Source: Tagaea sp. (GTDB lineage: Bacteria; Pseudomonadota; Alphaproteobacteria; CACIAM-22H2). From it: 64,000 nucleotides of DNA. The stretch spans positions 2,897,116 through 2,961,115 of the forward strand of contig OZ257249.1 in the NCBI GenBank assembly GCA_965279565.1, written 5' to 3'. Below are positions 11,506 through 35,665 of the stretch, one piece after another. The translations under genes were made by a program, and so were the position numbers. Every line of letters begins with the position of its first letter. Positions within the stretch are counted from its first letter, which is position 1. Under the pieces are notes generated by a model. The model was not told where the DNA came from, searched no databases, and saw only the letters and a program-made list of their open reading frames with translations.

Positions 11506-11610
11506 GTCCGCCTCCAGCGTTGAGGTCGGGACTATGGATCCGGCTGGCGTAGAGGTTCGATGCGGAACTCGGGATCGAGGCGTAAGGATTCTATAAGGGC
11601 AGTTCGTTTT

Positions 11611-11772
11611 CCTTGGTTTCCGCTCATTTCCCTTCGTTGCCGAAAATTATGGAAACCGTCGTTGAAATCATTGAATAAATAGAAGTTTGGGAGACTGGGG
11701 GTCGCAGGTTCGAATCCTGTCGCTCCGGCCATCAAAGAAGCCCGCCGATCGGAACGCCGGTCGGCGGGCTTC
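11611..11772 (+). repeat. repeat family copy C: leader + GGGGGTCGCAGGTTCGAATCCTGTCGCTCCGGCCA + hairpin GCCCGCCGATCGGaacgCCGGTCGGCGGGC
   Basis: Roughly 90% identical to copy A over about 135 nt by eye. Sits between the kdp promoter region and the stop of the threonine-aldolase-family gene. Confidence 0.8.
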
Positions 11773-11792
11773 GAAGTCTTCGATGAAAATCT

Positions 11793-18638: not shown

Positions 18639-19630
<992 letters not shown>

Positions 19631-20503
19631 CTAGCGCCCCTGCAGCTTGGGATCGAGCGCGTCGCGCAGCCCGTCGCCCAGCAGGTTGAACCCGATGATC
19701 GTCGTGCCGAGGGCCAGGCTGCCGAACAAGGCGAGGTAGGGGTCCGTGCGCAGGGCGGGCAGGCCGTCGCGGATCATGCCGCCCCAGCTTGCCTGCGGCT
19801 CCTGGATGCCGAGGCCGAGGAAGGAGAGCGTCGCCTCCGCCATGATGATGAAGCCCACGCCGACCGACGCGCGCACCAGCAGCGGTGCCGCGATGTTCGG
19901 CAGGAGGTGGCGCCAGAAGATCATCGCCGTCGAGGTGCCCGCGACGATGGCGGCATCGATATAGAGCTCCTCGCGGATCACCAGCACGAACGAACGCGTC
20001 AGGCGCGTGATGCCGGGCCACCAGACGAGTGCCAGGGAGACGACGACGGTGAGCGGGCCAGCCCCCATGACGGAAGCGACGAGGATCGCGATGACGACTT
20101 CCGGGAAGGCGAGCATGATGTCGACGATGCGCATCAGGATCGAGTCCGTGCGCCCGCCGACATAGCCCGCGAGCATCCCCAGGGTCGTTCCCACGGCGAG
20201 CGTTATCGCGAGCACCGCGCTTGCGACGAGCAGCGATGTCTGCGCACCGGCGATCAGGCGGCTGAGAATGTCGCGTCCCAGCTTGTCCGTTCCCAGGAGA
20301 TTGGGGCTGCCGGGCACGGCCCACGTGTTGAACAGGTCGGTCTCTTCCGGCGAATGCGGTGTCAGCAGCGGGGCCAGCAGGGCGACCGCGACGACGAACG
20401 CGACGATGGTGCCGCCGATGACCACGTTTCGCTGGCGGGCGAGCCGGCGTGTCAACCGGCGCCAGTCGAGGCCCGGGGCAGGTGCCATGGCGGTCGAACT
20501 CAT
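19631..20503 (-). CDS. peptide ABC transporter permease (DppC-like)
   Basis: 290 aa polytopic protein with a BPD_transp_1 EAA-like loop (AGYVGGRTDSILMRIVDIMLAFP). Confidence 0.85.
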   Translation of the reverse strand: MSSTAMAPAPGLDWRRLTRRLARQRNVVIGGTIVAFVVAVALLAPLLTPHSPEETDLFNTWAVPGSPNLLGTDKLGRDILSRLIAGAQTSLLVASAVLAITLAVGTTLGMLAGYVGGRTDSILMRIVDIMLAFPEVVIAILVASVMGAGPLTVVVSLALVWWPGITRLTRSFVLVIREELYIDAAIVAGTSTAMIFWRHLLPNIAAPLLVRASVGVGFIIMAEATLSFLGLGIQEPQASWGGMIRDGLPALRTDPYLALFGSLALGTTIIGFNLLGDGLRDALDPKLQGR

Positions 20504-21438
20504 GCCTGGACCATGCGCTGGCGGATGCGCGGATCGATGATCGCATAGGCGACGTCGACCAGCAGGTTGATCAGCACGAAGAAAGCGGTGAACAGCATGA
20601 CGATGGCCATCGCGACCGGATAGTCGCGCGCGAACACCGAATCGATGGCCATCCGGCCCAGCCCCGGAATGTTGAAGATCGTCTCGACGACGAACGTGCC
20701 GCTGATGAGCCCGCCGAAAATGATGCCCATCGAGGTGAGCAGCGGAACCATTATGTTGCGCAGCGCATGGCGCAGGATCACGACCGGCTCGCTCAGGCCC
20801 TTCGCCCGGGCCGTGCGGATGTAATCCTGCCCGAGCACTTCCAGCATGAAGGTGCGGGTGAGGCGGGCGATATAGGCCGCACTCGGAATCGTCAGGATCA
20901 GAACCGGCAGCACGGCCTGGTCGAGACGGCCCCAGCCGGCGACCGGCAGCACGCCGAGCTTGATCGAGAACGCATAGACGAGAAACGTCGCGACGGCGAA
21001 ATTCGGGACCGACAGGCCGGCGACGAGGATCAGGATGATCGCTGTGTCGGTCGCCGTGTTGCGCCGGATCGCCGCAATCACGCCAGCAAGCGTGCCGATC
21101 GAGGCGCCGAGGCCGAGTGCGGCGAGCGCGAGCAGTGGGCTGATCTTCAACCCGTCCTGCAGCACCTCGACGACGGGAATACGGACATATCGGTAGGACA
21201 TGCCGAAATCACCGGTCAGGACGCCGCCGACATAAACGGCGAACTGCTCCCACATCGGCCGGTCGAGGCCGTATTCGGCACGCAGCCGGGCGGCCATTTC
21301 CTCGTTCGAGGAGTGGTCGCCCAGCATAACCATTACGGGATCGCCTGGCAGCGCATAGGTGGCAAGAAAGGTCGCGATGAGCACCACCGCAAGCACCGGC
21401 ACGATCATCACCAGCCGCCAGACGACGAACCGCAGCAT
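20500..21438 (-). CDS. peptide ABC transporter permease (DppB-like)
   Basis: 312 aa. ATGA overlap with the downstream permease gene. Confidence 0.85.
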   Translation of the reverse strand: MLRFVVWRLVMIVPVLAVVLIATFLATYALPGDPVMVMLGDHSSNEEMAARLRAEYGLDRPMWEQFAVYVGGVLTGDFGMSYRYVRIPVVEVLQDGLKISPLLALAALGLGASIGTLAGVIAAIRRNTATDTAIILILVAGLSVPNFAVATFLVYAFSIKLGVLPVAGWGRLDQAVLPVLILTIPSAAYIARLTRTFMLEVLGQDYIRTARAKGLSEPVVILRHALRNIMVPLLTSMGIIFGGLISGTFVVETIFNIPGLGRMAIDSVFARDYPVAMAIVMLFTAFFVLINLLVDVAYAIIDPRIRQRMVQA

Positions 21439-21453
21439 GTGTGGGTTACGCCT

Positions 21454-22998
21454 TTACTTGATCTCCGTCGCTATGAAGCGGTCAAATCCGAAAGGCGTGA
21501 CGGACGCGTTAGTCACGTTGGGCTTGATGAGCGCTACGTTCGCCGGCATGGGAAGGGGGGCCGCTCCTATGTCTTCGATATAGACCATCTCGGCCTGCCG
21601 GTAGAGCGCGAAGCGCTTCGTGTTGTCGACGGTGCCGACGGCTTCGTCGATAAGCGCATCGAACTTGGCATTGCTCCAGCGTCCCCGGTTATACGGGCTC
21701 TTCGAGTGCCACATCTGCTGGAGATAGTACATCGCGTCCGGATAGCCCGACGTCCAGCCCCAGGGGAAGAACGCGATCTCGCCGGCGTTCATCCCGCGGA
21801 TGAAGGTGGCGCGCTCCGCCACGTTGACGTTGACCTGCATGCCCAGCGTGCGGTTCAGCTCGTTGGCATAGTAGGTGAGCTCGTCCTTGAAGACGGCCGT
21901 GCAGGTGATGTCGATCGGCGGCAGGCCCCGGCCGCCCGGATATCCTGCCTCGGCAAGCAGCTTCTTGGCGCCTTCCGGATCGTATTTCGGCTTGGGCAGG
22001 TCGGCGAAATAGCCGGCCACGCCCGGCGTCGTGACGCCATGGAGCTGGAAGGCGGCGTTGTCGTAGAAGCCGCGGATCATCGCGTCGCGGTTGATCGCCA
22101 TCGAGATCGCCTCGCGCACGCGCTTGTCCTTGAACGGCGCGTAGACGTTGGCGTTCATGCCGAGATAGCGCGACTGCGCGCGCGGCACGACATGGCGCTC
22201 CTTCTGCTTGCTGGCGTCGCGCATCACGCGGCGCAACGTGTTCTCCTGCACGTCGAGAAAGTCCAGCTCGCCGGCTTCGTACTGCGACAGGGCCGTGTCG
22301 CCGCTGGGGATGACGAGGAAGCGGATCCCGTCGATCTTGGGCGAACCGGCCCAGTACGCCTTGTTCGCCTCGATCTCGACATGCACGCCGCGGCGCCATT
22401 CCTTGAACTTGTAGGGGCCGGTGCCGGCCGAGACACTGCGGACCCAGTCCACGCCTTTTTCAGCGACGATACCGGAATCCATGAACCAGATCGGATAGAT
22501 CGGGAACAGCACGTCGGGCTTCGTGAAGCGCACTTCGATCGTGTGGTCGTCGACGATCTTGATGCCGGAAAGCTCCTTGGTCGTCCCGGCCTTGACGGCG
22601 GCGACCCCCACGATGTTGGCGACGTAGCCCGCACCCAGGCCCGCCTTGGTGTCGGGGGCGGCGAGCTGCTCCATCGTGTACTTCACGTCCTTGGCCGTGA
22701 AGGTCCGGCCGCTATGGAACTTGACGTTCTTGCGCAGATTGAATCGGAACCCGTGCTCGCCCGGCAGCGCGGTCCAGGATTCGGCCAGCACGTTGATGAT
22801 CTTGCCGTCCGGCGTGTAGTCCGTGAAACCTTCATAGACGTTGCGGATGACGCGGCCGGCGATGATCTCGGAATAGGTGATCGGATCCATCATTGCCGGA
22901 TCGCCGGTGACGTTGATCCGGAGCGTCTTCGCGTCGACCGGGGTCGCCAGGGCCAGGGCCGCCAGCATGACGGCAAACGCGCTGCTGATGTACTTCAT
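21454..22998 (-). CDS. ABC transporter substrate-binding protein, family 5 (peptide/opine/nickel type)
   Basis: 514 aa with a signal peptide (MKYISSAFAVMLAALALATPVDA) and SBP_bac_5 architecture. Confidence 0.85.
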   Translation of the reverse strand: MKYISSAFAVMLAALALATPVDAKTLRINVTGDPAMMDPITYSEIIAGRVIRNVYEGFTDYTPDGKIINVLAESWTALPGEHGFRFNLRKNVKFHSGRTFTAKDVKYTMEQLAAPDTKAGLGAGYVANIVGVAAVKAGTTKELSGIKIVDDHTIEVRFTKPDVLFPIYPIWFMDSGIVAEKGVDWVRSVSAGTGPYKFKEWRRGVHVEIEANKAYWAGSPKIDGIRFLVIPSGDTALSQYEAGELDFLDVQENTLRRVMRDASKQKERHVVPRAQSRYLGMNANVYAPFKDKRVREAISMAINRDAMIRGFYDNAAFQLHGVTTPGVAGYFADLPKPKYDPEGAKKLLAEAGYPGGRGLPPIDITCTAVFKDELTYYANELNRTLGMQVNVNVAERATFIRGMNAGEIAFFPWGWTSGYPDAMYYLQQMWHSKSPYNRGRWSNAKFDALIDEAVGTVDNTKRFALYRQAEMVYIEDIGAAPLPMPANVALIKPNVTNASVTPFGFDRFIATEIK

Positions 22999-23095
22999 CG
23001 CCGTTCTCCTTGCGCGTCCGGCACGGAGGCGCCGGAAACTCGTTGATCACAAATACTGCGTCCTATTGTGCGGTGCGTCAACGAGCTCCTGAAGG

Positions 23096-24109
23096 TTACG
23101 GCGCCACGATCACCTTGCCGAAAACGCCCCGTTCGTCGAGGAGCCGCATCGCCTCGCCGGCGCGCTCCAGAGGGAAGCGCTCGGGATGGAGGACGGGCTT
23201 CAAGCTCCCGTCCTTGACCATCGCCAGGAGGGCAAGCACGTCGGCACGGGCCCAGCCGTTCGAGCCGACGATGTTGAGCTCGAATGTCCAGATGAAGCGG
23301 ATATCCTCGGGCGGGTCGTAGCCGGCCGTGGCGCCGCACGTCAGCATGCGGCCGTCGCGACGCAGCACGCGCAGCGCCTTGGTCCATGTGTCGCCGCCGG
23401 TGAAATTGACGACCACGTCGATGCCGCCTTCGTCGCGCCGCGACGTCCGCGCGCGGCCGAACAGCCGGTGGCATTCGGCCACCCAATCCGTCGTCGCATA
23501 GTTGATCCCGACATCGGCACCCAGGGCACGCAGGTGTTCGAGCTTCGTCTCGCTGGACGTGCACGCGACCACGCGAGCGCCGGCGCGGCGGGCCAGTTGC
23601 ACGCAGCAGGTTCCCACGCCGCCCGAAGCGCCGAGGATCAGGATGGTCTCGCCGGCGCGCAGTTTTCCGCGCTCCAGCACCATGCGATGCGCGGTGCCAT
23701 AGGCCGTGGGCAGCGCTGCCGCTTCGGCATAGCCGATCGCCGGATCGAGTGGGACGCACATGTGCGCCGGGACGCGGACGAGTTCGGCAAGGCCGCCATC
23801 GAAAGTCTCGCCCATGAAGCCGCGCTCGGCGCGGTTGATCGGATCGATCAGGACCCTGTCGCCGGGTCGGAAGTCCGTGACCGCACTGCCGACCGCTTCG
23901 ATGTCGCCGGCCGCGTCGATTCCCATGATGAGCGGGAACGGGATCTTGATCCCGGGCATGCCCTTTCGCGTGAAGACGTCGTGGTAATTGAGCGCGCAGG
24001 CGCGCACGCGCACGATCACGTCGCCGGGACCGGGCTGCGGATCGCGGTAGCCCGCCTCGAATGTCAGCTTCTCGAGGCCGCCATGTTCGCGGATGACGAC
24101 GGCGCGCAT
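23096..24109 (-). CDS. MDR-family zinc-type alcohol dehydrogenase / quinone oxidoreductase
   Basis: 337 aa with GroES-like N-terminus, Rossmann motif LILGASGGVGTCCVQLA, and catalytic/structural Cys and His residues. Confidence 0.8.
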   Translation of the reverse strand: MRAVVIREHGGLEKLTFEAGYRDPQPGPGDVIVRVRACALNYHDVFTRKGMPGIKIPFPLIMGIDAAGDIEAVGSAVTDFRPGDRVLIDPINRAERGFMGETFDGGLAELVRVPAHMCVPLDPAIGYAEAAALPTAYGTAHRMVLERGKLRAGETILILGASGGVGTCCVQLARRAGARVVACTSSETKLEHLRALGADVGINYATTDWVAECHRLFGRARTSRRDEGGIDVVVNFTGGDTWTKALRVLRRDGRMLTCGATAGYDPPEDIRFIWTFELNIVGSNGWARADVLALLAMVKDGSLKPVLHPERFPLERAGEAMRLLDERGVFGKVIVAP

Positions 24110-24122
24110 CGGCTCTCCTTAT

Positions 24123-24758
24123 CTACGGACCAGTGAGAACCAGCTTGCCACGCGGCGTCTCCAGTTCGGCAAGGAAACCTGGGGTGAGCGCCCGCTCGAC
24201 GCGGACCGGAACACTCAGGGCGCCATAGATCGCCTCGAGCCGTTCGCGGTCGGGATGGAGGGCGACGAAATTCAGCAGCCGGAGGCCACGCGGTGTCGAG
24301 CCGGATGGATGGGGGGAGTTGCCCCAGTCGATCGCGAACGGGACCGAGTCGCCGAAAGACTCGTCGCCGAAATAGAGGATCGACCAGTCGAGCCGCACGC
24401 CGTCGGCCCGCGTTCGGCCCATCGAGACCGGTCCGCGGATCGGGATGCCGGCCGATTGCGCCGCAAGGCGTATCGCCGCGAGATCGTCGCTGCGCACGGA
24501 GAAAGCGGTCAGTCCGGGGCGCGGCTGGGCCGCGATGCGTGCGCCGCGCGTTCCGGCGAGATCCTGCGCCGGATCCGGCGCGATGATCTCGAAATATAGG
24601 CCGTCACCGAGCGACAGCAGGCTGTTGCGTGTGCCGAAGCCCGCATGCACGCCGCCGCGCGCCGGCTTCACGCCGGACAGCACCGTGAAAAGTCGCTCGC
24701 CGGCTTCGAGATCGGGTGCGCCCCAGAGAATGTGATCGAGTTCCACCTTCACCCGCAC
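24123..24758 (-). CDS. VOC (glyoxalase/bleomycin-resistance/dioxygenase) superfamily protein
   Basis: 211 aa with paired beta-alpha-beta-beta-beta module pattern (LDHILWGAPDLEAGERLF...). Weak family-level call. Confidence 0.55.
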   Translation of the reverse strand: MRVKVELDHILWGAPDLEAGERLFTVLSGVKPARGGVHAGFGTRNSLLSLGDGLYFEIIAPDPAQDLAGTRGARIAAQPRPGLTAFSVRSDDLAAIRLAAQSAGIPIRGPVSMGRTRADGVRLDWSILYFGDESFGDSVPFAIDWGNSPHPSGSTPRGLRLLNFVALHPDRERLEAIYGALSVPVRVERALTPGFLAELETPRGKLVLTGP

Positions 24759-24764
24759 TTTCCT

Positions 24765-25190
24765 TCAGGTCTTGCTGAGATAGACGCCGCGTCCGCTCGC
24801 GACAAGCGCCCCGGCCTCGTCGTGGATGCGGGCCTCGGCTGTGCATAGTGTGCGCCCGAGTTTGAGAATACAGGACTTTGCCAGAAGCGGGCCAGGCATG
24901 GCCGGCCGATGGAAGTCGACGCGCATGTCGACCGTGGGCAGGCCATGGCCGAGACGAGCCGCTATCGCATAGTCGCCGGCGATGTCGACGAGCGCGCCGA
25001 GAATGCCGCCATGCGTATACCCGATCCCGGCGACAGAAACGAATTCGGGCCGCCAAGGCATCAGTAACTCGACTCCTTCCTTTGACAAGGCGTGAAGGCG
25101 CACACCAAGCCATTGGTGAAACGGAGATCGGCGCACCATTTCGTCCAGCGCCCCGAATGTGATCGAGGTATTGTCGGCCGAGGCGGTCAT
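24765..25190 (-). CDS. PaaI/YbgC-type hotdog-fold thioesterase
   Basis: 141 aa with the HGG motif region (GIGYTHGGILGALVDIAGDYA), typical of PaaI-family thioesterases. Confidence 0.75.
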   Translation of the reverse strand: MTASADNTSITFGALDEMVRRSPFHQWLGVRLHALSKEGVELLMPWRPEFVSVAGIGYTHGGILGALVDIAGDYAIAARLGHGLPTVDMRVDFHRPAMPGPLLAKSCILKLGRTLCTAEARIHDEAGALVASGRGVYLSKT

Positions 25191-25625
25191 TCCAGTCGCA
25201 AGGCCATTCTGGCGCTACCTGTCCGCTGACATTCAGGTGGATGGAGGGAGAGAGCTTCCCCCCGTTCCGGGTGGGATTCAATAACTTAAGCGCTTCGGTG
25301 CCTCCGTCGTCGACCTAACCGACACGCCCCCCGCGACGCCGCTGATCGGGCGAGGCCCGCACGTCAATCTCCATCACAATCTCGTGCACGCCGTTCAGGG
25401 CGGCGATGTCGATCTTACGGCGTCGATGGTGGAATGCTCGTGACGGCCGACATTCACGAACTGATCGCCCGTATACATTCGATCGTGCCGGGGCTTCTGT
25501 CGCGCCGCGCATCCTATCTGGCGTCGGACGACAGGATACCGTCGGTATGCACATCGGTATGTACAACGGTGGCTTGACCTTCTTGCTGGCATTTCGATGG
25601 CACGGCTCTCGGAGTGTATTCATTC

Positions 25626-25760
25626 CCCTTGGTTTCCACTCCTTTCCCTTCGTTGCCGGAAATTGTGGAAACCGCCATTGAAATCATTGAACTTCTGGAA
25701 ACCGGGGGCGACTGGGGGTTGCAGGTTCGAATCCTGACGCTCAGACCGTCAAAGAAGTCC
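25626..25760 (+). repeat. repeat family copy D: leader + GGGGGTTGCAGGTTCGAATCCTGACGCTCAGACCG
   Basis: Leader about 85-90% identical to copies A and C by eye (CCTTGGTTTCCACTCCTTTCCCTTCGTTGCCGGAAATTGTGGAAACCGCCATTGAAATCATTGAA...). Followed 30 nt later by a distinct tRNA 3'-end fragment. Confidence 0.75.
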
Positions 25761-25791
25761 GCCGCCGGGTGACCGTTCGGTGAGCATTGCC

Positions 25792-25820
25792 GTAGGTTCG
25801 AGCCCTACGGCGCCCACCAT
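25792..25820 (+). other. tRNA 3'-end fragment with intact CCA (GTAGGTTCGAGCCCTAC-GGCGCCC-A-CCA), different from the repeat-family tRNA module
   Basis: Perfect 5-bp T-stem and 7-nt loop, 7-nt acceptor strand, discriminator and CCA. No D-arm or anticodon arm upstream, so not a full tRNA. Typical of an att-site scar. Confidence 0.5.
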
Positions 25821-25826
25821 CGCTTT

Positions 25827-26666
25827 TCAAGCCGCCGCGACCGGCACAATGCGGCCATAGACCTCCGGCATCGCCGAAATGTCGTCCAGAGCCAGCCCGT
25901 CGACCGTCTCGAGACGTGTCCGGAATGCGCCGCCGGGATCGAGCTCGAGCGTCACGTAGCCGACGAGTTTCGTTCCGAACCGCTCCTGGTGCCCGTCACC
26001 GACGATGAATGCCGTCGACGGCGCCCAGACATGAACCGTCTCGCCGTCTTCGAATCGTCGGTACTGATGCATGTGGCCGCTCGCAATTAGCGTGGGGTGC
26101 TTCGCGCCGAACGCCTCCCAAAGGCGCGTCCGTGCGACGTTCCCGACTCGCCAGTAGGTGCCATCCGGATCGACGATCGCACCGAGGCGAAGCGGCTTGT
26201 GCGCGAAAAGCGCGATATGGCGATCGCCTGCCTCCCGCACCGCGGCGGACAGGAACTCGAACTGCGCCTCCGTATCGGGCCCTGCGGCCCCGGCCAGCAG
26301 CGTGTTGATTCCGATCAACCGCCAGCCCGGCACGTCGCGCACGAAGCGGTCGTCGCCGAAATGGGCGCGATAGCGCGCCAGGCGTGTCGCGTCGAGCGGC
26401 TGCTTGCGGGCGACCGACGGATCGTCGCCGACATCGTGGTTTCCCGGAACGGCGAGCCAGTCGAGCCCGATCCCGGAATGCAGGTCGCGGGCGAAGGCGA
26501 GATCCTCGGCGCTGTCGGCGCCATCCAGCGAGATGTCGCCGGTGTTGATCACGAGATCGGGTTCATCCCTGCGGAGCTTTGCGGCGATTGCCCTGAAATT
26601 TCCGACGAAATGCGGCTTCGAGGGCGAAAGGTGCGTATCGGATATCTGAGCGATCCGGAACGTCAT
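25827..26666 (-). CDS. metallophosphoesterase (calcineurin-like phosphoesterase)
   Basis: MTFRIAQISDTHLS...GDISLDG...GNHD motifs. Start chosen at the ATG preceded by a GGAGAA SD. Confidence 0.8.
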   Translation of the reverse strand: MTFRIAQISDTHLSPSKPHFVGNFRAIAAKLRRDEPDLVINTGDISLDGADSAEDLAFARDLHSGIGLDWLAVPGNHDVGDDPSVARKQPLDATRLARYRAHFGDDRFVRDVPGWRLIGINTLLAGAAGPDTEAQFEFLSAAVREAGDRHIALFAHKPLRLGAIVDPDGTYWRVGNVARTRLWEAFGAKHPTLIASGHMHQYRRFEDGETVHVWAPSTAFIVGDGHQERFGTKLVGYVTLELDPGGAFRTRLETVDGLALDDISAMPEVYGRIVPVAAA

Positions 26667-26727
26667 GGGGTTCTCCATCGGCGATAGGGCGCCGCACGGA
26701 ACGATCCGTGCGGCGCCGCATTGGAAC

Positions 26728-28023
26728 TCAACCGCGCGGGACGAGCTTGCGCACTTCGGTCGCCATGTCGGCCAGGACCTGCTCGGGCGTCGCCCGCTGT
26801 TCGGCTATGCGGGCGAGGTTGTCCACCATCACGTTGGTGACGCGCACCGAGTTGGCGCCCGGGAACGCGTACCAGGGGACCATCAGGTGGACCTGCTTCG
26901 TCGCCGCCTGGAACAGCGGGTTCTCGCGGTAGAAGGCACCCAGATACTTCGGATCGTCGATCGCGATCTGGTTGCACGGCACGTAACCGGTGTTGATCGC
27001 CATCAGCGTCGTGCCCTCGGCCGAGGTCGCGAACTTGACGAACTCCCAAGCCGCGCGCTGCTTGGCCGGATCCTTCGTCACGATCATGGCGCCGGCCCCG
27101 CCGGTCGGCAGGCGGCCCTTCTGCGGATCGATGACCGGCATCGTCGTGGTCTGCAGCACGAAGTTCTTGCCGACCGATTCGGAAATGCCGCGCACCTGTG
27201 CGGTCGTGCGGAACATCATGCCGAGCTTGCCGGCTGCGAACGCCTGCAGGTCGGCCGTGCCCGCGTAGTTGGGCATGCCGCCTTCCTTGACCATCCGGTC
27301 GAGCAGACGCAACGCGGCGAGGCCCTCGGGGCCGTTGAACGCCACATCGGTCTCCTGATCGTTCAGCATGCGCCCGCCATGGCCGTAGAGCAGGGCCGAG
27401 AACATCCAGTCGTCGCCGGGCCAGCGGAAGAACATACCTTCCGTGCCGTCACCCAGCGCCCGGATGCGTTTCGATGCGGCGATGGCGTCATCCCAGTTGT
27501 TCGGGAAGCGCGCCGGATCGAGGTTCGCCCGCTTGAACAGATCGACATTGTAGTAGGAGATCGGGTTGGAGGTCGCGAAGGCGAGGCCCGCCTGCATTCT
27601 CCCGTGGAAGCCGAGACCGAGCAGGGCCGGCGAATAGCCGAGCTTCGCCGGATCGCCCTCCTGCGCCAGCAGCGGGCGCAGGTCGACCGCGATGCCGCGC
27701 TCGGCGAACAGCCGCAGGCGGTTGAGGCCCTGGAACGACACGTCGGGGAGGTTCTGCGTGGCAGCCCCGCGCAGCAGCAGCTGGGCGCCGTCCTCGTAGG
27801 TCGGCGACGGGTTGGCATAGGTCGCCTGGATGTTCGGGAAGCGCTTCGCGAATGCCTCCATCACGGCGTCCTTCGCCGGCTTGAAGATCGCGGGCATCGA
27901 ATAGTGGACGCTGATCGCGACGGGGGCCTGCGCGCGTACGGCCGGGGCAAACAGGGCGGTGGTGGTAGCACCGGCCACGACGGCCAGCGCCGAACGTCGG
28001 GACAGGTTTCTTTCGATTTTCAT
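26728..28023 (-). CDS. sugar ABC transporter substrate-binding protein (family 1)
   Basis: 431 aa with signal peptide MKIERNLSRRSALAVVAGATTTALFAPAVRA and SBP_bac_1 features. Confidence 0.85.
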   Translation of the reverse strand: MKIERNLSRRSALAVVAGATTTALFAPAVRAQAPVAISVHYSMPAIFKPAKDAVMEAFAKRFPNIQATYANPSPTYEDGAQLLLRGAATQNLPDVSFQGLNRLRLFAERGIAVDLRPLLAQEGDPAKLGYSPALLGLGFHGRMQAGLAFATSNPISYYNVDLFKRANLDPARFPNNWDDAIAASKRIRALGDGTEGMFFRWPGDDWMFSALLYGHGGRMLNDQETDVAFNGPEGLAALRLLDRMVKEGGMPNYAGTADLQAFAAGKLGMMFRTTAQVRGISESVGKNFVLQTTTMPVIDPQKGRLPTGGAGAMIVTKDPAKQRAAWEFVKFATSAEGTTLMAINTGYVPCNQIAIDDPKYLGAFYRENPLFQAATKQVHLMVPWYAFPGANSVRVTNVMVDNLARIAEQRATPEQVLADMATEVRKLVPRG

Positions 28024-28054
28024 GTGTATCTCCTTCTCGGTTGGAAACGGGGCC

Positions 28055-28891
28055 TCATCCCTTGAAGCCGGTCATCGTGATGCCTTCGATGAAGCGCCGC
28101 TGGGCGAACAGGAACGCCAGCACCAGCGGTGCGGTGACGAGCGTGGCGGCGGCCATCAGCGCGCCATAATCGTCACCCGCCTCTTCGGCGCGGAAATAGA
28201 GGACACCGAGTGCAGGCGTGTAGAGGTCGCCTTTCGTGACGACGATCAGCGGCCAGAACAGGTCGTTCCAGTGTGCGACGATCGAGAAGATCGCGAAGGC
28301 CGTCGCGGCAGGCCACGCGTTCGGTACCGCGACGCGCCAGACGATCGACGCTTCGCCCATGCCGTCGATCCGTGCCGCGTTCACGAGATCGTCGGGCAGC
28401 GCCTTGAAGAACTGCCGGAACAGGAAGATCGCGAAGACGGAGATCGTGAACGGTGCCGCGAGCGCGGAGTAGGTATTCAGCATTCCCGTGCCGGCGAGCG
28501 CGATGTAGATCGGAATAGCCGGCACGTGCGTCGGGATCAGCAACCCGAGGATGACGAAGGCGAACAGGGTCTCCCGTCCGCGAAAGTGCAGCTTGGCGAG
28601 CGCGTAGCCCGCGGGAAGCGCGAAGGCGAGCTGGAAGGCAAGAATCAGCGCGCAGACGATCAGGCCGTTGATGATGTAGCGGCCGACGGGTACCTCGGCG
28701 AGGACGCGGCCGTAGTTCTCTGCCGCGTACCAGACTTGGGGCCAGAGTGAAAGCGTGGCGCTGAAGACTTCCGACCGCGGCTTGACCGACACCGCGAGCA
28801 TCCACACATATGGCATCAGGAACAGGAGGGCGAGCGTGCCCAGCAGGGCGAGCCGGGGCAGGTCCGCGCGCAGACTGGTGCGGTCAGCCAT
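28055..28891 (-). CDS. sugar ABC transporter permease (MalG-like)
   Basis: 278 aa with an EAA loop (AARIDGMGEASIVWRVAVP). Confidence 0.85.
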   Translation of the reverse strand: MADRTSLRADLPRLALLGTLALLFLMPYVWMLAVSVKPRSEVFSATLSLWPQVWYAAENYGRVLAEVPVGRYIINGLIVCALILAFQLAFALPAGYALAKLHFRGRETLFAFVILGLLIPTHVPAIPIYIALAGTGMLNTYSALAAPFTISVFAIFLFRQFFKALPDDLVNAARIDGMGEASIVWRVAVPNAWPAATAFAIFSIVAHWNDLFWPLIVVTKGDLYTPALGVLYFRAEEAGDDYGALMAAATLVTAPLVLAFLFAQRRFIEGITMTGFKG

Positions 28892-29804
28892 AATGCACCC
28901 GCCTTTCGATGAGGCGCTGCTGGACCAGCATCAGCGCGAGCACGACCGCAAGGAACACGACCGTCATCGCCGACGCGTAGCCCATGCGCAGGAACGTGAA
29001 GCCCTCCTGATAGATCGTGTAGACGATCAGTTCCGACGCCTTCGTCGGTCCGCCCTGCGTCAGGGTGGCAACCGTATCGAAGGTGCGGATGGCGCGGACC
29101 GTCGTGATGAGCACGACGAACAACATCGTCGGCCCGAGCAGCGGCCAGGTCACGAGCCGGAAGCGCTCCCAGACCGAACGAACCCCGTCCATCTCGCTCG
29201 CGGCGTAGAGTTCGCGCGGAATGGCGGTGAGGCCCGCGAGAATGAGCACGAGATTGAACCCGGCGTTCTCCCAGATCGAGATCAGGCCGAGCGAGATGAG
29301 CACCCAGTCGCTGCTTCCCAGCCAGTTCGGGCCCGCGATCCCGAAGCTCCGCAGGACGGCATTCACCGGACCGATCGTGGGGTGCAGCAGGTACTGCCAT
29401 GCCGTCGCCATGGCGACGACGAGCGAGACGACGGGCAGGAAGAATGCGGCGCGGAAGATAGCGCGTCCTCGGGCGTTCGCCTCGATGAGCAACGCAAGAA
29501 GCAGCCCTGCCGCGATCGAGGCCGGTGTCACGATCGCGACGAAGGTCGCCGTGTTCCGTATGGATGTCGCGAAGCCGCGGTCATGCAATAGTTCGGCGAA
29601 ATTCTCCAACCCGACATAGCGTAGCGACGGAAGGCCGAACTCGTAGTCGGTAAGCGCCAGCAGGCAGACGGCCAGAGTCGGCACGAGAAGGAAGCCCGCG
29701 AATGCGAGGATCGCCGGGCCGCACAGCAGCCAACCTGCGATCGCCTCGCCGGTCATCGCCATGCGCCGGCGGCCTGTCCGCCCGACGGCGGCGGCGTCAG
29801 CCAC
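28884..29804 (-). CDS. sugar ABC transporter permease (MalF-like)
   Basis: 306 aa with an EAA loop (ASEMDGVRSVWERFRLVTWP). Start may be an internal ATG. Confidence 0.8.
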   Translation of the reverse strand: MADAAAVGRTGRRRMAMTGEAIAGWLLCGPAILAFAGFLLVPTLAVCLLALTDYEFGLPSLRYVGLENFAELLHDRGFATSIRNTATFVAIVTPASIAAGLLLALLIEANARGRAIFRAAFFLPVVSLVVAMATAWQYLLHPTIGPVNAVLRSFGIAGPNWLGSSDWVLISLGLISIWENAGFNLVLILAGLTAIPRELYAASEMDGVRSVWERFRLVTWPLLGPTMLFVVLITTVRAIRTFDTVATLTQGGPTKASELIVYTIYQEGFTFLRMGYASAMTVVFLAVVLALMLVQQRLIERRVHYG

Positions 29805-30948
29805 TGACTAGCTCCGCGACGCCGCGATGGACGCGGCGGCAGGGAACGCGCCTTCCGTCCGGCCCGAAGAGGAGGGCGCGCGCGGGATCGAAACCGAGTC
29901 GTATCGGCTCGCCGGTCCGGACGTCGAGATCGGTACGGCCTTCGAGGCGCGCGATCGCGGCGGTACCCGTCGCATCGTGGCGGACATGCACGAGAACGGA
30001 GTCCCCGAGGAACTCGACATGCTCGAGCCGCGCCTTGAAACCGCCGCGTGCGAGGACCTGCAGGTCCTCGGGGCGTATCGCGAGTGTCACGGGGCCGGCG
30101 GCAGGTGCGACGAGATCCGTCGGCTCCGAGCCCAACCGGACCAGCCCGTCCGGCCCGGCCTGGGCGGGCAGTGCGTTGATGCTCGGCGAGCCGACGAAGG
30201 CGGCGACGCGCAGGTCGACCGGATCGAGATAGACCTGCTCCGGGCGGCCGATCTGGAGGATCTCGCCACTCATCATCACGGCGACCCGGTCGGCCATCGT
30301 CATCGCCTCCGTCTGGTCATGCGTGACATAGATGGTCGCCGCGCCGACGCGGCGATGGATGTCGACGATCTCCTTGCGCGTCTGGACACGCAGGGACGCG
30401 TCGAGATTCGACAGCGGCTCGTCCAGCAGGAACGCCTTGGGGTGGCGGACGATCGCGCGCCCCAGCGCCACGCGCTGACGCTGGCCGCCGGAGAGTTGGC
30501 CCGGCTTGCGGTCGAGCAGGGGGCCGATCGCGAGCAGATCGGCCGTCCGACGGATTTCGGCGTCGATCTCGGCCAGCCGGGCCCTCGTGCCGGAAAGCAT
30601 CCGCCCGACGAACGGCAGCCTCTGGAACGCGTCGAGGCGGCGCATGACCAGCGGAACCGCCATGTTCTGGCGGGCGGTCAGGTGCGGATAGAGGGCATAG
30701 GACTGGAAAACCATCGCGACATCGCGTTCGGCCGCCCGTCGTTCGGTCACGTCTATGCCGTCGATCCGAACCGCACCGGAATCCGGCGTTTCGAGTCCGG
30801 CCACGATGCGCATGAGGGTCGTCTTGCCGCAGCCCGATGGCCCCACGAGGGCGACGAACTCGCCTTCATCGACCTCGAGCGAGACCCCTCCGAGCGCCAC
30901 GAAGTCACCGAAGCGTTTGACGATGTTCTGGACACTGACCCCGGCCAT
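29797..30948 (-). CDS. sugar ABC transporter ATP-binding protein (MalK/UgpC-like)
   Basis: Walker A GPSGCGKTT, signature LSGGQRQRVALGRA, and a C-terminal TOBE-like domain. Confidence 0.85.
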   Translation of the reverse strand: MAGVSVQNIVKRFGDFVALGGVSLEVDEGEFVALVGPSGCGKTTLMRIVAGLETPDSGAVRIDGIDVTERRAAERDVAMVFQSYALYPHLTARQNMAVPLVMRRLDAFQRLPFVGRMLSGTRARLAEIDAEIRRTADLLAIGPLLDRKPGQLSGGQRQRVALGRAIVRHPKAFLLDEPLSNLDASLRVQTRKEIVDIHRRVGAATIYVTHDQTEAMTMADRVAVMMSGEILQIGRPEQVYLDPVDLRVAAFVGSPSINALPAQAGPDGLVRLGSEPTDLVAPAAGPVTLAIRPEDLQVLARGGFKARLEHVEFLGDSVLVHVRHDATGTAAIARLEGRTDLDVRTGEPIRLGFDPARALLFGPDGRRVPCRRVHRGVAELVSG

Positions 30949-31091
30949 ATCGCTCCTCCGACATTACCGGGCGGACTCTGTCGGCAAGCGGTGACGGAAA
31001 TGCTTTGGTCGAATGAAGATGCCGTTTCAGTCCGATGTGGTTCACGTGACGGCGGGTTGCGTCCGGCGGCGCGTCCGCGCAAAGTCCCGGC

Positions 31092-31805
31092 ATGGCGGAT
31101 ATGGATTCATTGGCCGGAAGCGGGCTTTTCGCGGTCGTTCCCACTCTCGACGCGGCGGCAAGTCTGGAGGCGACGCTTGCCGTAATCCGGACGGCGGAAA
31201 TTCCGATGCTCGTCGTAGATAGCGGATCCGTCGATGCGACGGTCGAAGTCGCGCGCCGGGCGAATGCACGCGTCCTCGCCGCGCCGAGCGGCCGCGGCAA
31301 TCAACTCGCCGCCGGAGCGGCAGCGGCCCTCGAGCAAGGCGGTCGATGGCTCCTGTTTGTCCACGCGGATACACGCCTTCCAGACGGCTGGATTGCCACG
31401 ATCCGCAAGTTCATCGACGCGAACGCGACAGCAAATCGAGCCGGCTATTTCTGCCTCGCCTTCGACGACGCCGGTCCACAAGCGGCGCGAGTTGCTCGGC
31501 TTGCGAACTGGCGGTCGCGTACGTTCGGCCTGCCATACGGGGATCAGACGCTGCTTGTGCCGGCGGAACTCTATCGGGCGGTCGGGGGATACCGGCCGAT
31601 CCCGCTTATGGAAGACGTCGACCTCGTCCGGCGGATCGGGCGCGCGCGTCTCGTCGAAATGGATGGTACCGCGACGACATCGGCAGACCGCTACCGGCGC
31701 GGAGGCTGGTGGCTCCGGCCGGTCCGAAACCTGATCTGCCTCGCGCTCTGGATGGCCGGCGTACCGCCCGAACGGCTGGTCGGCTTCTACCGGGGAAGAC
31801 GATGA
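31092..31805 (+). CDS. family-2 glycosyltransferase resembling 'rSAM/selenodomain-associated transferase 2' (TIGR04283-like)
   Basis: 237 aa with a GT-A fold (VVPTLDAAASLEATL...VVDSGSVDATV...DxD-like MEDVDLVRR). ATGA overlap with the next gene. Confidence 0.65.
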   Translation: MADMDSLAGSGLFAVVPTLDAAASLEATLAVIRTAEIPMLVVDSGSVDATVEVARRANARVLAAPSGRGNQLAAGAAAALEQGGRWLLFVHADTRLPDGWIATIRKFIDANATANRAGYFCLAFDDAGPQAARVARLANWRSRTFGLPYGDQTLLVPAELYRAVGGYRPIPLMEDVDLVRRIGRARLVEMDGTATTSADRYRRGGWWLRPVRNLICLALWMAGVPPERLVGFYRGRR

Positions 31806-32395
31806 GGCCCACTCTCGTGATTTTCGCAAGATTCCCGGCTCTTGGCCGCGTCAAGACCCGTCTCGCCGCCGGCATCGGCGACACCGCCGCGCTCGCCTTC
31901 CATCGGACGACGCTGGAGCGCACATGCCGGATGGCCACGCGCCTGCCGTGGCGCGTCGAACTCCATGTGACGCCAAACGCCACGTCGCGCTTCCCACGCC
32001 TCTGGCCACGTGTCGGGCGCACACGTCCGATCGCGCAGGGGAGCGGCGATCTTGGCGCGAGGATGGTCCGCGCGTTTGCCCGCCGTTGCGGACCGACGCT
32101 TCTGGTCGGCTGCGACATTCCTGAGATGACAGTCGGCCACCTGCGCTCTGCTGCATTGCTGCTGGGAGCAAGCGACGCGGTCTTCGGGCCGGCCAAGGAC
32201 GGAGGTTTCTGGCTCGCCGGCTTCCGCAACGGTCGGCTGGCCCGCAGGGCATTCGCAGGCGTACGCTGGTCGAGTCCGCATGCTCTGGCCGACTGCCTTG
32301 CCAATCTTCGGGGCCGGCGCATGGCCTTTGCCCATGTTCTGGACGACATCGACGATCGAAGCGATCTTCTGGCGTGGCGGAGGCGTACGGCATGA
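31802..32395 (+). CDS. DUF2064 protein resembling 'rSAM/selenodomain-associated transferase 1' (TIGR04282-like)
   Basis: Real start at the internal ATG (MRPTLVIFARFPALGRVKTRLAAGIG...GCDIPEMT...GPAKDGGFWLAGF), which are hallmark DUF2064 motifs. The listed ORF 31346.. carries an Arg-rich spurious N-terminus. Confidence 0.65.
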   Translation: MRPTLVIFARFPALGRVKTRLAAGIGDTAALAFHRTTLERTCRMATRLPWRVELHVTPNATSRFPRLWPRVGRTRPIAQGSGDLGARMVRAFARRCGPTLLVGCDIPEMTVGHLRSAALLLGASDAVFGPAKDGGFWLAGFRNGRLARRAFAGVRWSSPHALADCLANLRGRRMAFAHVLDDIDDRSDLLAWRRRTA

Positions 32396-32450
32396 AACCA
32401 TTTTTTCTGCGTGCGCGAACCAGATACGGGGTTTGGCGGAAGGTGGAGAC

Positions 32451-33392
32451 ATGCGGTCAGGGGAGATAGGGAAGCCAACGATGAAGTTCGTCGATCCGCA
32501 ATTCACGCTTTCCGGACAGAGTCGAGCGAAGGTGCGGCTGAAAGCGCTGCGCACGCTCTGGCTCAATACCGGTACGCTCTGCAACATCGCTTGCGCCAAC
32601 TGCTACATCGAGTCTTCGCCGCGCAACGACCGCCTTTCCTACTTGCAGCGCGACGAAGCGGCTCGCTTCGTCACCGAAGGCGTGGCGCTTTCCCCCGAAC
32701 TTGCCGAAATCGGATTCACCGGCGGCGAGCCATTCATGAATCCCGACATCATCGGAATGCTTGCCGACGCCCTCGACGCGGGCCTGCGCGTGCTCGTGCT
32801 GACCAACGCAATGAAGCCGATGTGGAACCGGCGCGAAGCTCTCGGCGCGCTGCTGCGCGACCATCCGGATCGGCTTATGCTGCGCGTCTCGCTCGACCAC
32901 TACACGCGCGAACAGCACGAGCAGGTGCGCGGTGCCGACACGTGGGAACCCGCGATCGAAGGGCTGAAATGGCTGGCCTCTGCCGGTGTCGCGCTTGCGG
33001 TCGCCGCGCGAAAGATCGGACCGGAAGGCGAGCCGGCGCTGCGTGCCGGCTTTGCGCGACTCTTCGAAGCGCAAGTCATCCCGGTCGATGCTGCGGATCG
33101 CCAGCGCCTCGTCCTCTTTCCCGAAATGGACGCGAACGCTGACGTGCCGGAGATCAGCGACGCTTGCTGGGGCATACTCGGAAAATCTCCCGACGACGTC
33201 ATGTGTTCGAGCGCAAGGATGGTCGTGCGCCGCAGGGGATCGAGCCGGGCAAGCGTCGTCGCCTGCACGCTGCTGCCCTATGACGAGGCATTCGATCTTG
33301 GGCCGACGCTTGCCGATTCCACGGGGCCGGTCCCGCTCAATCACCGCCACTGCGCCAAGTTCTGTGTTCTCGGCGGAGCTGCCTGCAGCTAG
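32451..33392 (+). CDS. radical SAM protein with a C-terminal Cys-rich domain (rSAM/Cys-rich 'selenodomain' family-like)
   Basis: CNIACANCY (CxxxCxxC) radical-SAM motif near the N-terminus. The C-terminal region is Cys-rich (CWGILG...MCSS...VVACTLLPYDE...HRHCAKFCVLGGAACS). Start at the ATG with an AGGTGGAG SD. Confidence 0.7.
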   Translation: MRSGEIGKPTMKFVDPQFTLSGQSRAKVRLKALRTLWLNTGTLCNIACANCYIESSPRNDRLSYLQRDEAARFVTEGVALSPELAEIGFTGGEPFMNPDIIGMLADALDAGLRVLVLTNAMKPMWNRREALGALLRDHPDRLMLRVSLDHYTREQHEQVRGADTWEPAIEGLKWLASAGVALAVAARKIGPEGEPALRAGFARLFEAQVIPVDAADRQRLVLFPEMDANADVPEISDACWGILGKSPDDVMCSSARMVVRRRGSSRASVVACTLLPYDEAFDLGPTLADSTGPVPLNHRHCAKFCVLGGAACS

Positions 33393-33468
33393 GCGGTGCG
33401 CCAGGAAGTTCTCCAAAACGTAACAATGCAATCACGCCCGGCTCACAGAATCAGCCTACGCAGGCGTA

Positions 33469-34755
33469 TTGCCCAAGTTTACGGAAAAGAGAACGCACGT
33501 GTTTGCAGATCGAATCGAATCCGGGTCCGCCACGCTGCGGAACATCAATGCGGCGGTGAACCGGAGCGCTGTGCTGTCGAAAGTCGGTCTTCAGGAACGG
33601 CTCTTCTCGCTCCTGTTTTCCGGGCTGGTCTATTCCCAGATATGGGAAGATCCGGCGATCGATCTCGAAGCCTTGAATCTTGGTCCCAACGACCGGGTCA
33701 TCGCGATTGCATCGGGCGGATGCAATGCACTCAGCTATCTCTCCGCGGCTCCCGCAAGAATCACGGCTGTCGATCTAAATTTCCATCACGTCGCGCTCAA
33801 CCGCCTGAAGATTTCGGCAATCCGGTATCTCCCGGACCATGACGAACTTTTCCGATTTCTCGGGAAGGCCGATTCGCCCGAGAATCTGGAGCTCTACGCC
33901 AGCCATCTGCGTGGCCGTCTCGATCCGGACTCGCGCGCATACTGGGACGGGCGCGACATCCTAGGGCGCCGCCGGATCGGGATGTTCGCCAGAAATGTCT
34001 ACCGCAAGGGCCTTCTCGGCAGATTCATCGGCGCCGGGCATGCGATCGCGCGGCTTCACGGATGCGATCCGTCCCGATTGCTGACCGCGAGATCCTTGCG
34101 CGAACAGCGCGAGTTTTTCGAGGCGGAGATCCAGCCAATCCTGCGTTCGCGCGTCGTCCGGTTTCTGGCCGACCAGCCATTCTCGCTCTACGGACTCGGG
34201 ATACCACCAGCTCAGTATGCGGCATTGCTCTCGTCGGCATCCGAAGGGATGAAGATGGCGGATGTTCTGGAGCAGCGCCTACGGCGATTGGCCTGCGCCT
34301 TTCCGGTCGCCGACAACTACTTTGCTTGGCAAGCCTTCGGACGGCGCTATCCGGACGGAGTGGACCGGACCGTGCCGCCATATCTCGCGCGCGCCAACTA
34401 CGCCCGGATCCAGTCGACGATCGAGCGGATCGAAATTCGCCACGGCAATCTGATTGACGAACTTGAGCGCGCCGAGAATGCGTCGTTAGACGCCTATGTT
34501 CTGCTTGATGCGCAGGACTGGATGACGAATGCCGTCCTGAACCGGCTCTGGACCGCGATTCATCGGACCGCGAGGCTGGGTGCGCGCGTCATTTTCCGAA
34601 CCGCCGCCGAGCCGTCCTTGCTCCCTGGGCGCGTCGATCCAAGGATCCTCGGAAAATGGCGCTACGATGCCGAGCGCTGCCGCGACTGGACCAACAGGGA
34701 CCGTTCGGCGATCTATGGCGGCTTCCATCTCTACCGTCTCGACGAAGCCGCATGA
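33469..34755 (+). CDS. btaA: BtaA-like DUF3419 protein (S-adenosylmethionine:diacylglycerol 3-amino-3-carboxypropyl transferase family)
   Basis: About 420 aa, DUF3419/BtaA-like (LFSGLVYSQIWEDPAIDLEAL...). Start ambiguous: TTG at 33469 per the ORF track, or GTG at about 33499. ATGA overlap with btaB. Confidence 0.65.
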   Translation: MPKFTEKRTHVFADRIESGSATLRNINAAVNRSAVLSKVGLQERLFSLLFSGLVYSQIWEDPAIDLEALNLGPNDRVIAIASGGCNALSYLSAAPARITAVDLNFHHVALNRLKISAIRYLPDHDELFRFLGKADSPENLELYASHLRGRLDPDSRAYWDGRDILGRRRIGMFARNVYRKGLLGRFIGAGHAIARLHGCDPSRLLTARSLREQREFFEAEIQPILRSRVVRFLADQPFSLYGLGIPPAQYAALLSSASEGMKMADVLEQRLRRLACAFPVADNYFAWQAFGRRYPDGVDRTVPPYLARANYARIQSTIERIEIRHGNLIDELERAENASLDAYVLLDAQDWMTNAVLNRLWTAIHRTARLGARVIFRTAAEPSLLPGRVDPRILGKWRYDAERCRDWTNRDRSAIYGGFHLYRLDEAA

Positions 34756-35420
34756 ATCCGATACTCGCGACCTCGAATGGCGACGCGATGGACCGCATCT
34801 ATCGCTGGCAGGTGCCAATCTACGATCTGACCCGTAAATACTATCTGGTGGGGCGGGATCGGTTGATCGGCGAACTCGACCCGCCGCCGGATGGCTCGAT
34901 TCTCGAAATCGGCTGCGGCACCGGCCGGAATCTGCTTTCCGTTTCGAGGATGTACCAGCGCGTAGAGCTTTTCGGGATCGATGTCAGTGCCGTGATGCTC
35001 GAAACCGCCCGTTCTTCTGCCCGCATGTCGAAGTACGGTGCGCGCATCGCGTTCGCGCAGGCCGATGCCGGCACGTTCGAACCGATGGCCCTGTTCGGGC
35101 GCCGGAGCTTCGACCGGATATTCATCTCCTATGCGCTTTCGATGATTCCAGATTGGCGGGCTGCGCTCGATCGGGCCATGGCGGCACTGCAACCGGATGG
35201 ACGGCTCCTGATCGTCGACTTCGGCGAAATGGAGCGGCTGCCCGGGCCGCTGCGATGCGGTTTCGGGAGATGGCTTGCCGCCTTTGCGGTCAAGCCGCGG
35301 GTGGATCTCGCACGGGTACTCGCGGTCAAGGCGGCCAGAGACGGCCTTGTGTCTCGTACGGAATCGCTTCTCGGCGGCTATGCCATCTATGCCACCGTGC
35401 GGCAAATGCCGAACGACTGA
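34752..35420 (+). CDS. btaB: BtaB-like class I SAM-dependent methyltransferase
   Basis: 222 aa from the internal ATG (MNPILATSNGDAMDRIYRWQVPIYDLTRKYY...) with SAM motif I ILEIGCGTGRN. Gene order btaA-btaB matches the DGTS betaine-lipid pathway. Confidence 0.65.
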   Translation: MNPILATSNGDAMDRIYRWQVPIYDLTRKYYLVGRDRLIGELDPPPDGSILEIGCGTGRNLLSVSRMYQRVELFGIDVSAVMLETARSSARMSKYGARIAFAQADAGTFEPMALFGRRSFDRIFISYALSMIPDWRAALDRAMAALQPDGRLLIVDFGEMERLPGPLRCGFGRWLAAFAVKPRVDLARVLAVKAARDGLVSRTESLLGGYAIYATVRQMPND

Positions 35421-35424
35421 GCAT

Positions 35425-35665
35425 CGATGTTCCTTGATTGCCTTTGGGGCGCTGGCGAGTAGCCACAAAGGCATTCGACGGCTTCGAATCCTGCACCCTT
35501 CCCCGTCGACTTCCAAATCTCGCTTGGGGCTCAATGAGGCTATTTGGGGTGGCGATGACGGAAAGCCGTTGTGGAAGGGATGGGCTCGCCATCCGATGGA
35601 GCTTCAATGCTCTTGGTTTCCACTCGCTTCCCTTAAATGCCTAAAATCGTCGAATTTCCGCCGCA
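35425..35665 (+). repeat. degenerate remnants of the repeat family: a leader-like start GTTCCTTGATTGCC with T-arm-like CGACGGCTTCGAATCCTGCACCC (35476-35498), and a 5'-only leader copy E (about 35610-35665: CTCTTGGTTTCCACTCGCTTCCCTTAAATGCC...)
   Basis: Shares the TTGGTTTCCACTC...TTCCCTT leader start with copies A-D, but the tRNA-like module is missing or decayed. Sits between btaB and the SDR genes. Confidence 0.45.

Follow-up and report, generated by a model that had tools for sequence, protein, structure and literature searches.

A 29-nt fragment of a tRNA-Lys(CTT) gene lies at positions 25791–25819 on the plus strand of the window, a 64,000-nt stretch of a Tagaea sp. contig, and is fused to the decayed terminator tail of a repeat unit (unit D) derived from a different tRNA, tRNA-Pro(GGG). 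The remainder of the tRNA-Lys gene is missing, synteny with related genomes breaks at the junction, and the units of tRNA-Pro origin are clustered in the same region. The fragment, hereafter the Lys relic, is an orphaned and apparently non-functional gene end, and we give an even chance to the reading that it is an att-type scar, that is, displaced tDNA which was later orphaned. The relic itself is an ordinary feature. What is moderately interesting, and merits follow-up, is the array of units that delimits permuted operon blocks with no integrase nearby.

Identity of the Lys relic

The relic reads CGTAGGTTCGAGCCCTAC-G-GCGCCC-A-CCA. At positions 25792–25819 it consists of a perfect 5-bp T stem with a canonical 7-nt T loop (GTAGG-TTCGAGC-CCTAC), followed by the 7-nt 3′ strand of the acceptor stem (GGCGCCC), the discriminator A and CCA; C25791, the last base of the variable loop, is also part of the match to real tRNAs. 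The sequence confirms the initial annotation of this DNA, which described a tRNA 3′-end fragment with a perfect T arm, acceptor strand, discriminator and CCA, except that its end coordinate, 25820, was one base too far, as the CCA ends at 25819.

Alignment with the 3′ halves of tRNA-Lys genes in viral and proviral contigs gave between 28/29 and 30/31 identical positions, the best being 30/31 to tRNA-Lys(CTT) 3′ halves. The similarity sets in with the final base of the variable loop and the 5′ strand of the T stem, and the sole mismatch to the common tRNA-Lys(CTT) 3′ end is a G, not an A, at tRNA position 66. A degenerate pattern of the relic, TAGGTTCGAGCCCTANNGCGCCCA, is present in 41 viral or proviral contigs, and the full genes among these are tRNA-Lys(CTT) or, less similar, tRNA-Val. 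In about 30 of the 41 only the 3′ half is present (...ACTCTTAATCAGCGGGTCG TAGGTTCGAGCCCTAC AGCGCCCACCA) and the full tRNA is missing. This 3′ half, the classical att core of tRNA-Lys-targeting elements, begins in the CTT anticodon loop and is about 45 nt long compared with 29 nt in the window, where the 17 nt preceding the T stem in the viral cores are missing. The exact 28-mer with G at position 66 had 0 matches in an exact search of metagenome contigs and was not found in the related loci L001–L008. The Lys relic was found in no other locus compared and is not present after any other repeat unit. BLAST searches against plasmids and phages returned partial tRNA matches of 85–93% identity, none of them better than the tRNA-Lys cores of the viral contigs.

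Nothing tRNA-like had been seen in front of the fragment, nor a full tRNA in the window, and both statements are borne out: the similarity stops at the T stem, and ARAGORN reported 0 tRNA or tmRNA genes over the whole 64 kb. An Rfam scan of the window gave nothing at the gathering thresholds, and between 25500 and 25900 no match to the tRNA clan was obtained even at E ≤ 10. The 5′ acceptor/D region and the anticodon region of tRNA-Lys were not found in the window when up to three mismatches were allowed, and no intact tRNA-Lys gene is present in the 25.8 kb upstream of the relic or elsewhere in the window. The relic has no acceptor 5′ strand, D arm or anticodon arm from which a cloverleaf could form, and the sequence directly upstream is the tail of unit D.

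The tRNA-Pro-derived units and the junction

The window contains five full units (A, B, C, D and E) and one truncated unit (F), all on the plus strand. A full unit is about 175 nt long and comprises a conserved arm, a tRNA-Pro(GGG) 3′ half and a terminator. The arm, which contains GGTTTCC repeats, is made up of an inverted repeat (GGTTTCCAC...GTGGAAACC) followed by the tandem ATTGAAAT-C-ATTGAATAA, and the core is the nearly invariant GTCTGGGGGACTGGGGGTCGCAGGTTCGAATCCTGTCGCTCCGACCA; the terminator-like hairpin that ends each full unit varies in sequence among the copies. BLAST against plasmid records followed by ARAGORN identified the invariant module as the last 47 nt of tRNA-Pro(GGG), which extend from the anticodon loop through CCA. 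As in attP sites, the tDNA 3′ fragment in units A–F starts at a crossover subsite, here the anticodon loop.

Unit A (3169–3332) has the arm, a tRNA-Pro(GGG) 3′ half with ACCA at its end, and a terminator of its own. Unit B (3355–3522) is in tandem with A, has diverged, ends in ACCG, carries a different terminator and abuts the end of kdpE. Unit C (11603–11775) is located between the start of the kdp operon and the end of the thioesterase operon (block T, see below) and has an ortholog (L005b) in a Tagaea MAG. Unit E (50366–50540) has a degenerate T loop, AGATTCGGATCC, and the truncated unit F (35603–35654), which retains the arm only, follows a methyltransferase-DUF3419-radical SAM cluster. 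A 156-nt stretch just after unit E (50595–50750) is 81% identical to the inner part of a gene of the SbmA/BacA family in a Tagaea MAG (L166, 4666–4819) and is probably a gene fragment left behind by rearrangement.

The family is also present in Tagaea sp. MAGs and in a related Rhodospirillales MAG, and within any one genome all copies point the same way and occupy a single region of 35–70 kb. In the family alignments there is no conservation upstream of the arm, where conservation begins abruptly. Three base pairs of the 5′ hairpin show double changes, and a local helix (GGGG-CG-CAGG/CCUG-CG-CUCC) can be drawn. An origin of the units from a one- or two-piece tmRNA was considered and rejected: the truncated Rfam match is weak (14.3 bits, where the gathering score is 47), the module has been identified as tRNA-Pro(GGG) and ARAGORN finds no tmRNA. 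A reading of the units as small RNAs with a tRNA/alanine-like minihelix was downgraded, as the helix uses the G-rich anticodon and the variable region of tRNA-Pro; a literature search for small RNAs with tRNA-like minihelices in alphaproteobacteria returned nothing relevant.

Unit D occupies 25619–25793 of the plus strand, as delimited by the family alignments, by BLAST to the copies in L005 and L003 and by the tRNA-Pro identity of its module. Its conserved arm (25619–25702) has the family's inverted repeat followed by ATTGAAATCATTGAA; the tRNA-Pro(GGG) 3′ half (25703–25748) is mutated, and the terminator (25757–25785, with a tail to 25793) is decayed. The copy is a decaying one: the tRNA-like end is ACCG, the terminator has several substitutions and the T tract is gone. 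Homology to the L005 and L003 copies continues through the terminator tail (GTCCGCCGCCGGGTGACCGTTCGGTGAGCATTGCCGT, against GCCCGCCGCCGGGAGACCGGTCGGCGGGCTTTACCGT in L005) up to 25793, such that the unit and the relic overlap by three nucleotides, CGT (25791–25793). A scan for sigma-70 promoters around unit D found none. The fragment had been taken to differ from the repeat module, correctly, since it is of the tRNA-Lys(CTT) type and the module derives from tRNA-Pro(GGG). The accompanying description of two tRNA 3′ scars side by side holds to the extent that two different tRNA 3′ fragments adjoin, whereas unit D is a complete unit of about 175 nt rather than a bare scar.

On the other side, the relic's CCA is followed by a 7-nt spacer (TCGCTTT, 25820–25826) and then by the stop codon of a convergent metallophosphoesterase gene (25827–26678, minus strand; Pfam Metallophos, with homologues), and the similarity to contig L050 ends at 25826/25827. 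The metallophosphoesterase gene closes a sugar-ABC-transporter operon (block M; Pfam SBP_bac_1/8, BPD_transp_1 and ABC_tran) that extends to about 30948. The next operon (block T) begins with a PaaI/4HBT thioesterase gene (24765–25190, minus strand; assigned with Pfam), whose upstream non-coding region reaches about 25503; up to that position the DNA is 93% identical to, and collinear with, the Tagaea MAG locus L161. The relic is therefore located between the end of one operon and, about 640 nt further on, the start of the next, and the 'operon switch' that had been noted at this point does not apply, both operons being on the minus strand. Upstream of unit D is a gap of 430 nt that is orthologous to non-coding DNA in the Tagaea MAG, and the open reading frames within it (25315–25623, minus; 25406–25681, plus) have no Pfam match. 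At 25497–25507 (plus strand) the sequence CTGTCGCGCCG is identical over 11 nt to the T-stem/acceptor junction of unit B (3468–3478).

Synteny and gene content

The junction of the relic with unit D is a synteny breakpoint in three independent comparisons (L050, L161 and L162/163), and breaks in synteny are found at all of the units in the window. L050 is the closest contig with the metallophosphoesterase (82% protein identity), and there the stop codon of this gene is followed after 15 nt by a convergent methyltransferase-DUF3419-radical SAM-DUF2064-GT2 cluster. The methyltransferase-GT2 cluster of the window is on the other side of the transporter operon (31.1–35.4 kb) and is followed by the truncated unit F, so that the sugar ABC/metallophosphoesterase operon and the GT2-methyltransferase cluster (together 25827–35420) are tail-to-tail in L050 and head-to-head in the window. 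More distant relatives have an acetyltransferase after the metallophosphoesterase gene. There is no tRNA gene at or near the position of the relic in the related loci.

In the Tagaea MAG locus L161, DNA that is 93% identical to 18765–25503 of the window is joined directly to DNA that is 92% identical to 3468–9143, which comprises the 3′ part of unit B and kdpE, kdpD, kdpC and kdpB. The join is a 7-nt overlap, CTGTCGC (5669–5675 in L161; 3468–3474 in the window), at the T-stem/acceptor junction of the Pro core. The first 7 nt of CTGTCGCGCCG are this same overlap, of which the window keeps the 11-nt copy. The order of the blocks is T-K in the MAG and K-C-T in the window, the two blocks, kdp and thioesterase, being in effect circularly permuted. 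The thioesterase operon of MAG-107 is 92% identical as far as the start codon, and the region upstream is different, with a full family unit oriented like D and then an ECF sigma gene; the relic is missing. The MAG (L005b) has orthologs of unit C and of the start of block T, and the block upstream of these contains an IS3 fragment, a secretin and Sel1 in place of kdp. The MAG ortholog of the sensor kinase to the left of unit A (853–3150) is on another contig, followed by unrelated genes. About 7 kb from this ortholog a gene with DUF6538 and Phage_integrase domains (L166, 1554–2789) stands beside a resolvase gene; the integrase looks unrelated to the units, and neither a tRNA nor a family unit is nearby.

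Pfam searches of about 60 open reading frames in the window identified metabolic, transport and regulatory genes only, and no integrase, excisionase or transposase domain (including Phage_integrase and rve) was found among them. GC content and skew along the window show no island-like step. The suggestion that the junction is a recombination or integration hotspot holds in so far as synteny ends at or next to it in the three comparisons above; integration by an integrase is not demonstrated by a window of some 60 reading frames without integrase or transposase, without a shift in GC content and without an intact tRNA-Lys gene.

The arm motif ATTGAAATCATTGAATAA is found, at a similar spacing, upstream of other tRNA 3′ halves in unrelated contigs. 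The 18-nt motif precedes the 3′ half of tRNA-Gln(TTG) in soil contigs and that of another tRNA in low-GC proviruses, and in the phage contig L089 it is followed by CCTTGGTTTCCAC, which is the arm sequence of the family. The 18-mer (C)CATTGAAATCATTGAATAA (window 3228–3245 and equivalent positions) is unchanged in contigs of 37–67% GC (L053–L057; L062, L074 and L129; L089, L095 and other GC-rich viral contigs). The motif has no integrase beside it in L055 and L089, and in L095 CGGAAGT iterons flank it.

Origin of the relic and of the unit array

Genomic islands catalogued with Islander (PMC4383910) have ends marked by tDNA and a displaced fragment; the attP, of about 250 bp, carries a tDNA fragment, crossovers are in the anticodon loop, the T loop or the T/acceptor junction, and tandem arrays occur, those of three or more being rare (4/3919). 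Like the displaced tDNA 3′ fragments that tyrosine-integrase genomic islands and prophages leave as attR/attL scars (PMC4383910), the relic is a 3′-terminal tRNA piece that matches the tRNA end through the discriminator and CCA, as the Islander criterion for fragments describes, and starts in the T stem, a known crossover region among the Islander subsites. Also like such scars, it is in an intergenic junction at which the gene content of relatives differs, and a core of its type serves many proviruses as an att site. The reading as an att scar is favoured because the fragment is 3′-terminal, starts in a known crossover region, corresponds to a very common att core and has att-like units around it. 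Unlike displaced tDNA scars, it is fused to another tRNA-derived unit and not to recognisable element DNA, the window has no compositional island, and a cognate full tRNA and an intervening integrase were not found in the 64 kb, the range over which they were sought.

We infer that an integrase made the Lys fragment. A tyrosine-integrase element inserting into a tRNA gene would leave the displaced tDNA end at one of its borders, and later rearrangements would then have orphaned the Lys fragment. The relic now lies at a three-way junction, with the decayed terminator tail of D to its left and the stop codon of the sugar-transporter/metallophosphoesterase operon to its right. Unit D is a member of a clustered family of attP-like units built on the tRNA-Pro(GGG) 3′ half, in a plasticity zone where multi-gene metabolic blocks bounded by the Pro-derived units are permuted, gained and lost between Tagaea genomes. 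The blocks would presumably be shuffled by recombination at or between these units, and the Lys fragment would be a passive scar that one such event left behind or brought along.

Several observations count against an att scar. No mobility domain was found in the roughly 60 reading frames of the window, in which there is also no shift in composition; the cognate tDNA would be expected upstream, yet the 25.8 kb on that side have no intact tRNA-Lys; and the blocks between the units are housekeeping-like operons (kdp, ABC transporters, dehydrogenases). The viral tRNA-Lys att cores extend for about 45 nt from the anticodon loop, and the 29-nt relic, being shorter, may owe its length to truncation at the fusion with D and not to cleavage by an integrase. 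Only 3 nt are shared at that junction, which is typical of illegitimate recombination, and the exact 28-mer with G at position 66 is in no metagenome contig.

A second explanation accounts for the data nearly as well as an att scar, and we hold it to be possible but the less probable of the two. A resident tRNA-Lys(CTT) gene, downstream of D and convergent with the transporter operon, would have been truncated by an illegitimate deletion or rearrangement at the CGT microhomology, with no involvement of an integrase; the 5′ two-thirds of the gene would have been removed and the remainder fused to the terminator tail of D. The direct fusion with its 3-nt overlap, the length of 29 nt compared with 45 nt for the proviral tRNA-Lys att cores, the absence of an integrase or island signature from the window and the demonstrable rearrangement of the locus relative to its relatives are all in agreement with this. 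A resident gene is harder to reconcile with the related loci, which have no tRNA gene at or near this position, and with the 7 nt between the CCA and the convergent stop codon, which leave no room for a terminator of the tRNA's own; in addition, the start at the T stem coincides with a known integrase crossover region. Like tRNA pseudogenes and fragments made by deletion, the relic is part of a gene with no evident function, but its exact 3′-terminal nature and its T-stem start are more typical of att scars.

The anatomy of the units points in the direction of attachment sites. With a conserved arm, a tDNA 3′ half that begins in the anticodon loop, and a terminator able to restore the target gene, they are built like an attP, and also like the internal P-O-P′ junctions that repeated integration into a single tRNA gene should leave; a terminator-like hairpin that differs in sequence from unit to unit would be expected of elements that have to rebuild a tRNA gene's 3′ end. 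The units accordingly appear to be att sites rather than small RNA genes. Tandem island arrays at one tRNA or tmRNA gene are reportedly the subject of Williams' 'Traffic at the tmRNA gene'. Like such arrays, with their internal P-O-P′ junctions, units A–F are co-oriented, occupy one region per genome and separate gene blocks, and like the junctions of serial integration each combines a conserved arm, a tDNA 3′ half and a terminator. They differ from Islander-type arrays, in which there is one integrase per island, in that at least five units are present here with no integrase in the window, the cargo is housekeeping-like (kdp operon, ABC transporters), and units A and B are adjacent with nothing between them. 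At the tyrT locus of E. coli the repeats of the rtT RNA (Rfam RF00391) are directly downstream of an intact tRNA gene and within one operon. The units resemble these repeats in that each contains a tRNA 3′ end including CCA, and differ from them in that the window has no intact tRNA and no Rfam match.

A more elaborate possibility, which we put forward tentatively and regard as rather unlikely, is an integron-like cassette zone of Tagaea-type Rhodospirillales. Blocks of operons (among them kdp and the ABC transporters for peptides and sugars), each bounded by complete attP-like units, would be excised and reinserted as circles by an integrase encoded elsewhere, and the Lys relic would be the trace of a second att system that supplies this zone as well. 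The bounding unit would consist of the GGTTTCC-repeat arm, ATTGAAATCATTGAATAA, the tRNA-Pro(GGG) 3′ half and the terminator; the permutation of K-T and T-K would have arisen through the 7-nt CTGTCGC crossover at the T/acceptor junction; and the 18-nt arm motif may be the conserved site of a recombination module shared with elements that target other tRNAs in unrelated phyla.

It is improbable that the T-arm stem of the relic has been kept as a terminator or RNA-stabilising hairpin for unit D (plus strand), for the metallophosphoesterase operon (minus strand) or for both. The stem extends to 7 bp (CCGTAGG/CCTACGG) and forms a strong hairpin on both strands (minus strand, −24.7 kcal/mol, z = −2.5), the relic is 7 nt after a stop codon, and D's own terminator is weakened by its substitutions and the loss of the T tract. 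Against such a role, a terminator scan found no site at 25785–25830 on either strand. A GC-rich stem-loop directly followed by a T run, as in intrinsic terminators, is not present: the minus strand has no T run after the stem and that of the plus strand begins 13 nt beyond it. Nor would a hairpin explain why the full acceptor strand and CCA have been kept.

Slightly more improbable still is a non-canonical tRNA-like or tmRNA-like RNA gene made up of unit D and the relic, with the units as small RNA genes bearing a tRNA-like minihelix and not att-type sites. The double changes in three pairs of the 5′ hairpin, the local helix, the strong terminators and the weak truncated match to the 3′ part of tmRNA (14.3 bits) are of the kind that such a gene would show. 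However, the supposed minihelix is tRNA-Pro(GGG) from the anticodon loop to CCA, the matches to tmRNA and YrlA are far below their gathering scores (47 and 69 bits), ARAGORN gives no match, no conserved promoter was found and conservation begins abruptly at the arm, and the relic is missing after all other units.

A generic detector of tRNA 3′ ends (a 5-bp stem closed by G-C, TTCRANN, 7 nt, N and CCA) identified three sites in the window, namely unit A, unit C and the Lys relic, when 0.007 are expected per window from 300 Markov simulations. A chance resemblance of the relic to a tRNA 3′ end, for which nothing but its short length speaks, is refuted by this expectation and by the match of 28/29 to 30/31 positions to one specific tRNA type.

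Taken alone, the relic records past recombination at a tRNA gene, which is routine, and its value is that of a pointer. Together with the Pro-derived units, it shows that what is apparently a core metabolic stretch is a modular, reshuffled zone, the borders of which carry tRNA halves and no mobility genes. Should the units turn out to be active att sites used by a distant integrase, whole operons would be moved in an unusual manner; should they be substrates for homologous recombination only, they would be a clear example of repeats structuring genome plasticity.

Two paralogous genes for FAD-dependent oxidoreductases (PF12831) are in tandem at 42367–45352, and these account for the direct repeats spaced by 1417 nt (D2, D3, D8 and D11). 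Long inverted repeats (30367–30918 and 41445–41948, 71–78% complementary) are inside two ABC-transporter ATPase genes (29797–30948, minus strand; 41415–42518, plus strand) and are consistent with paralogs on opposite strands.
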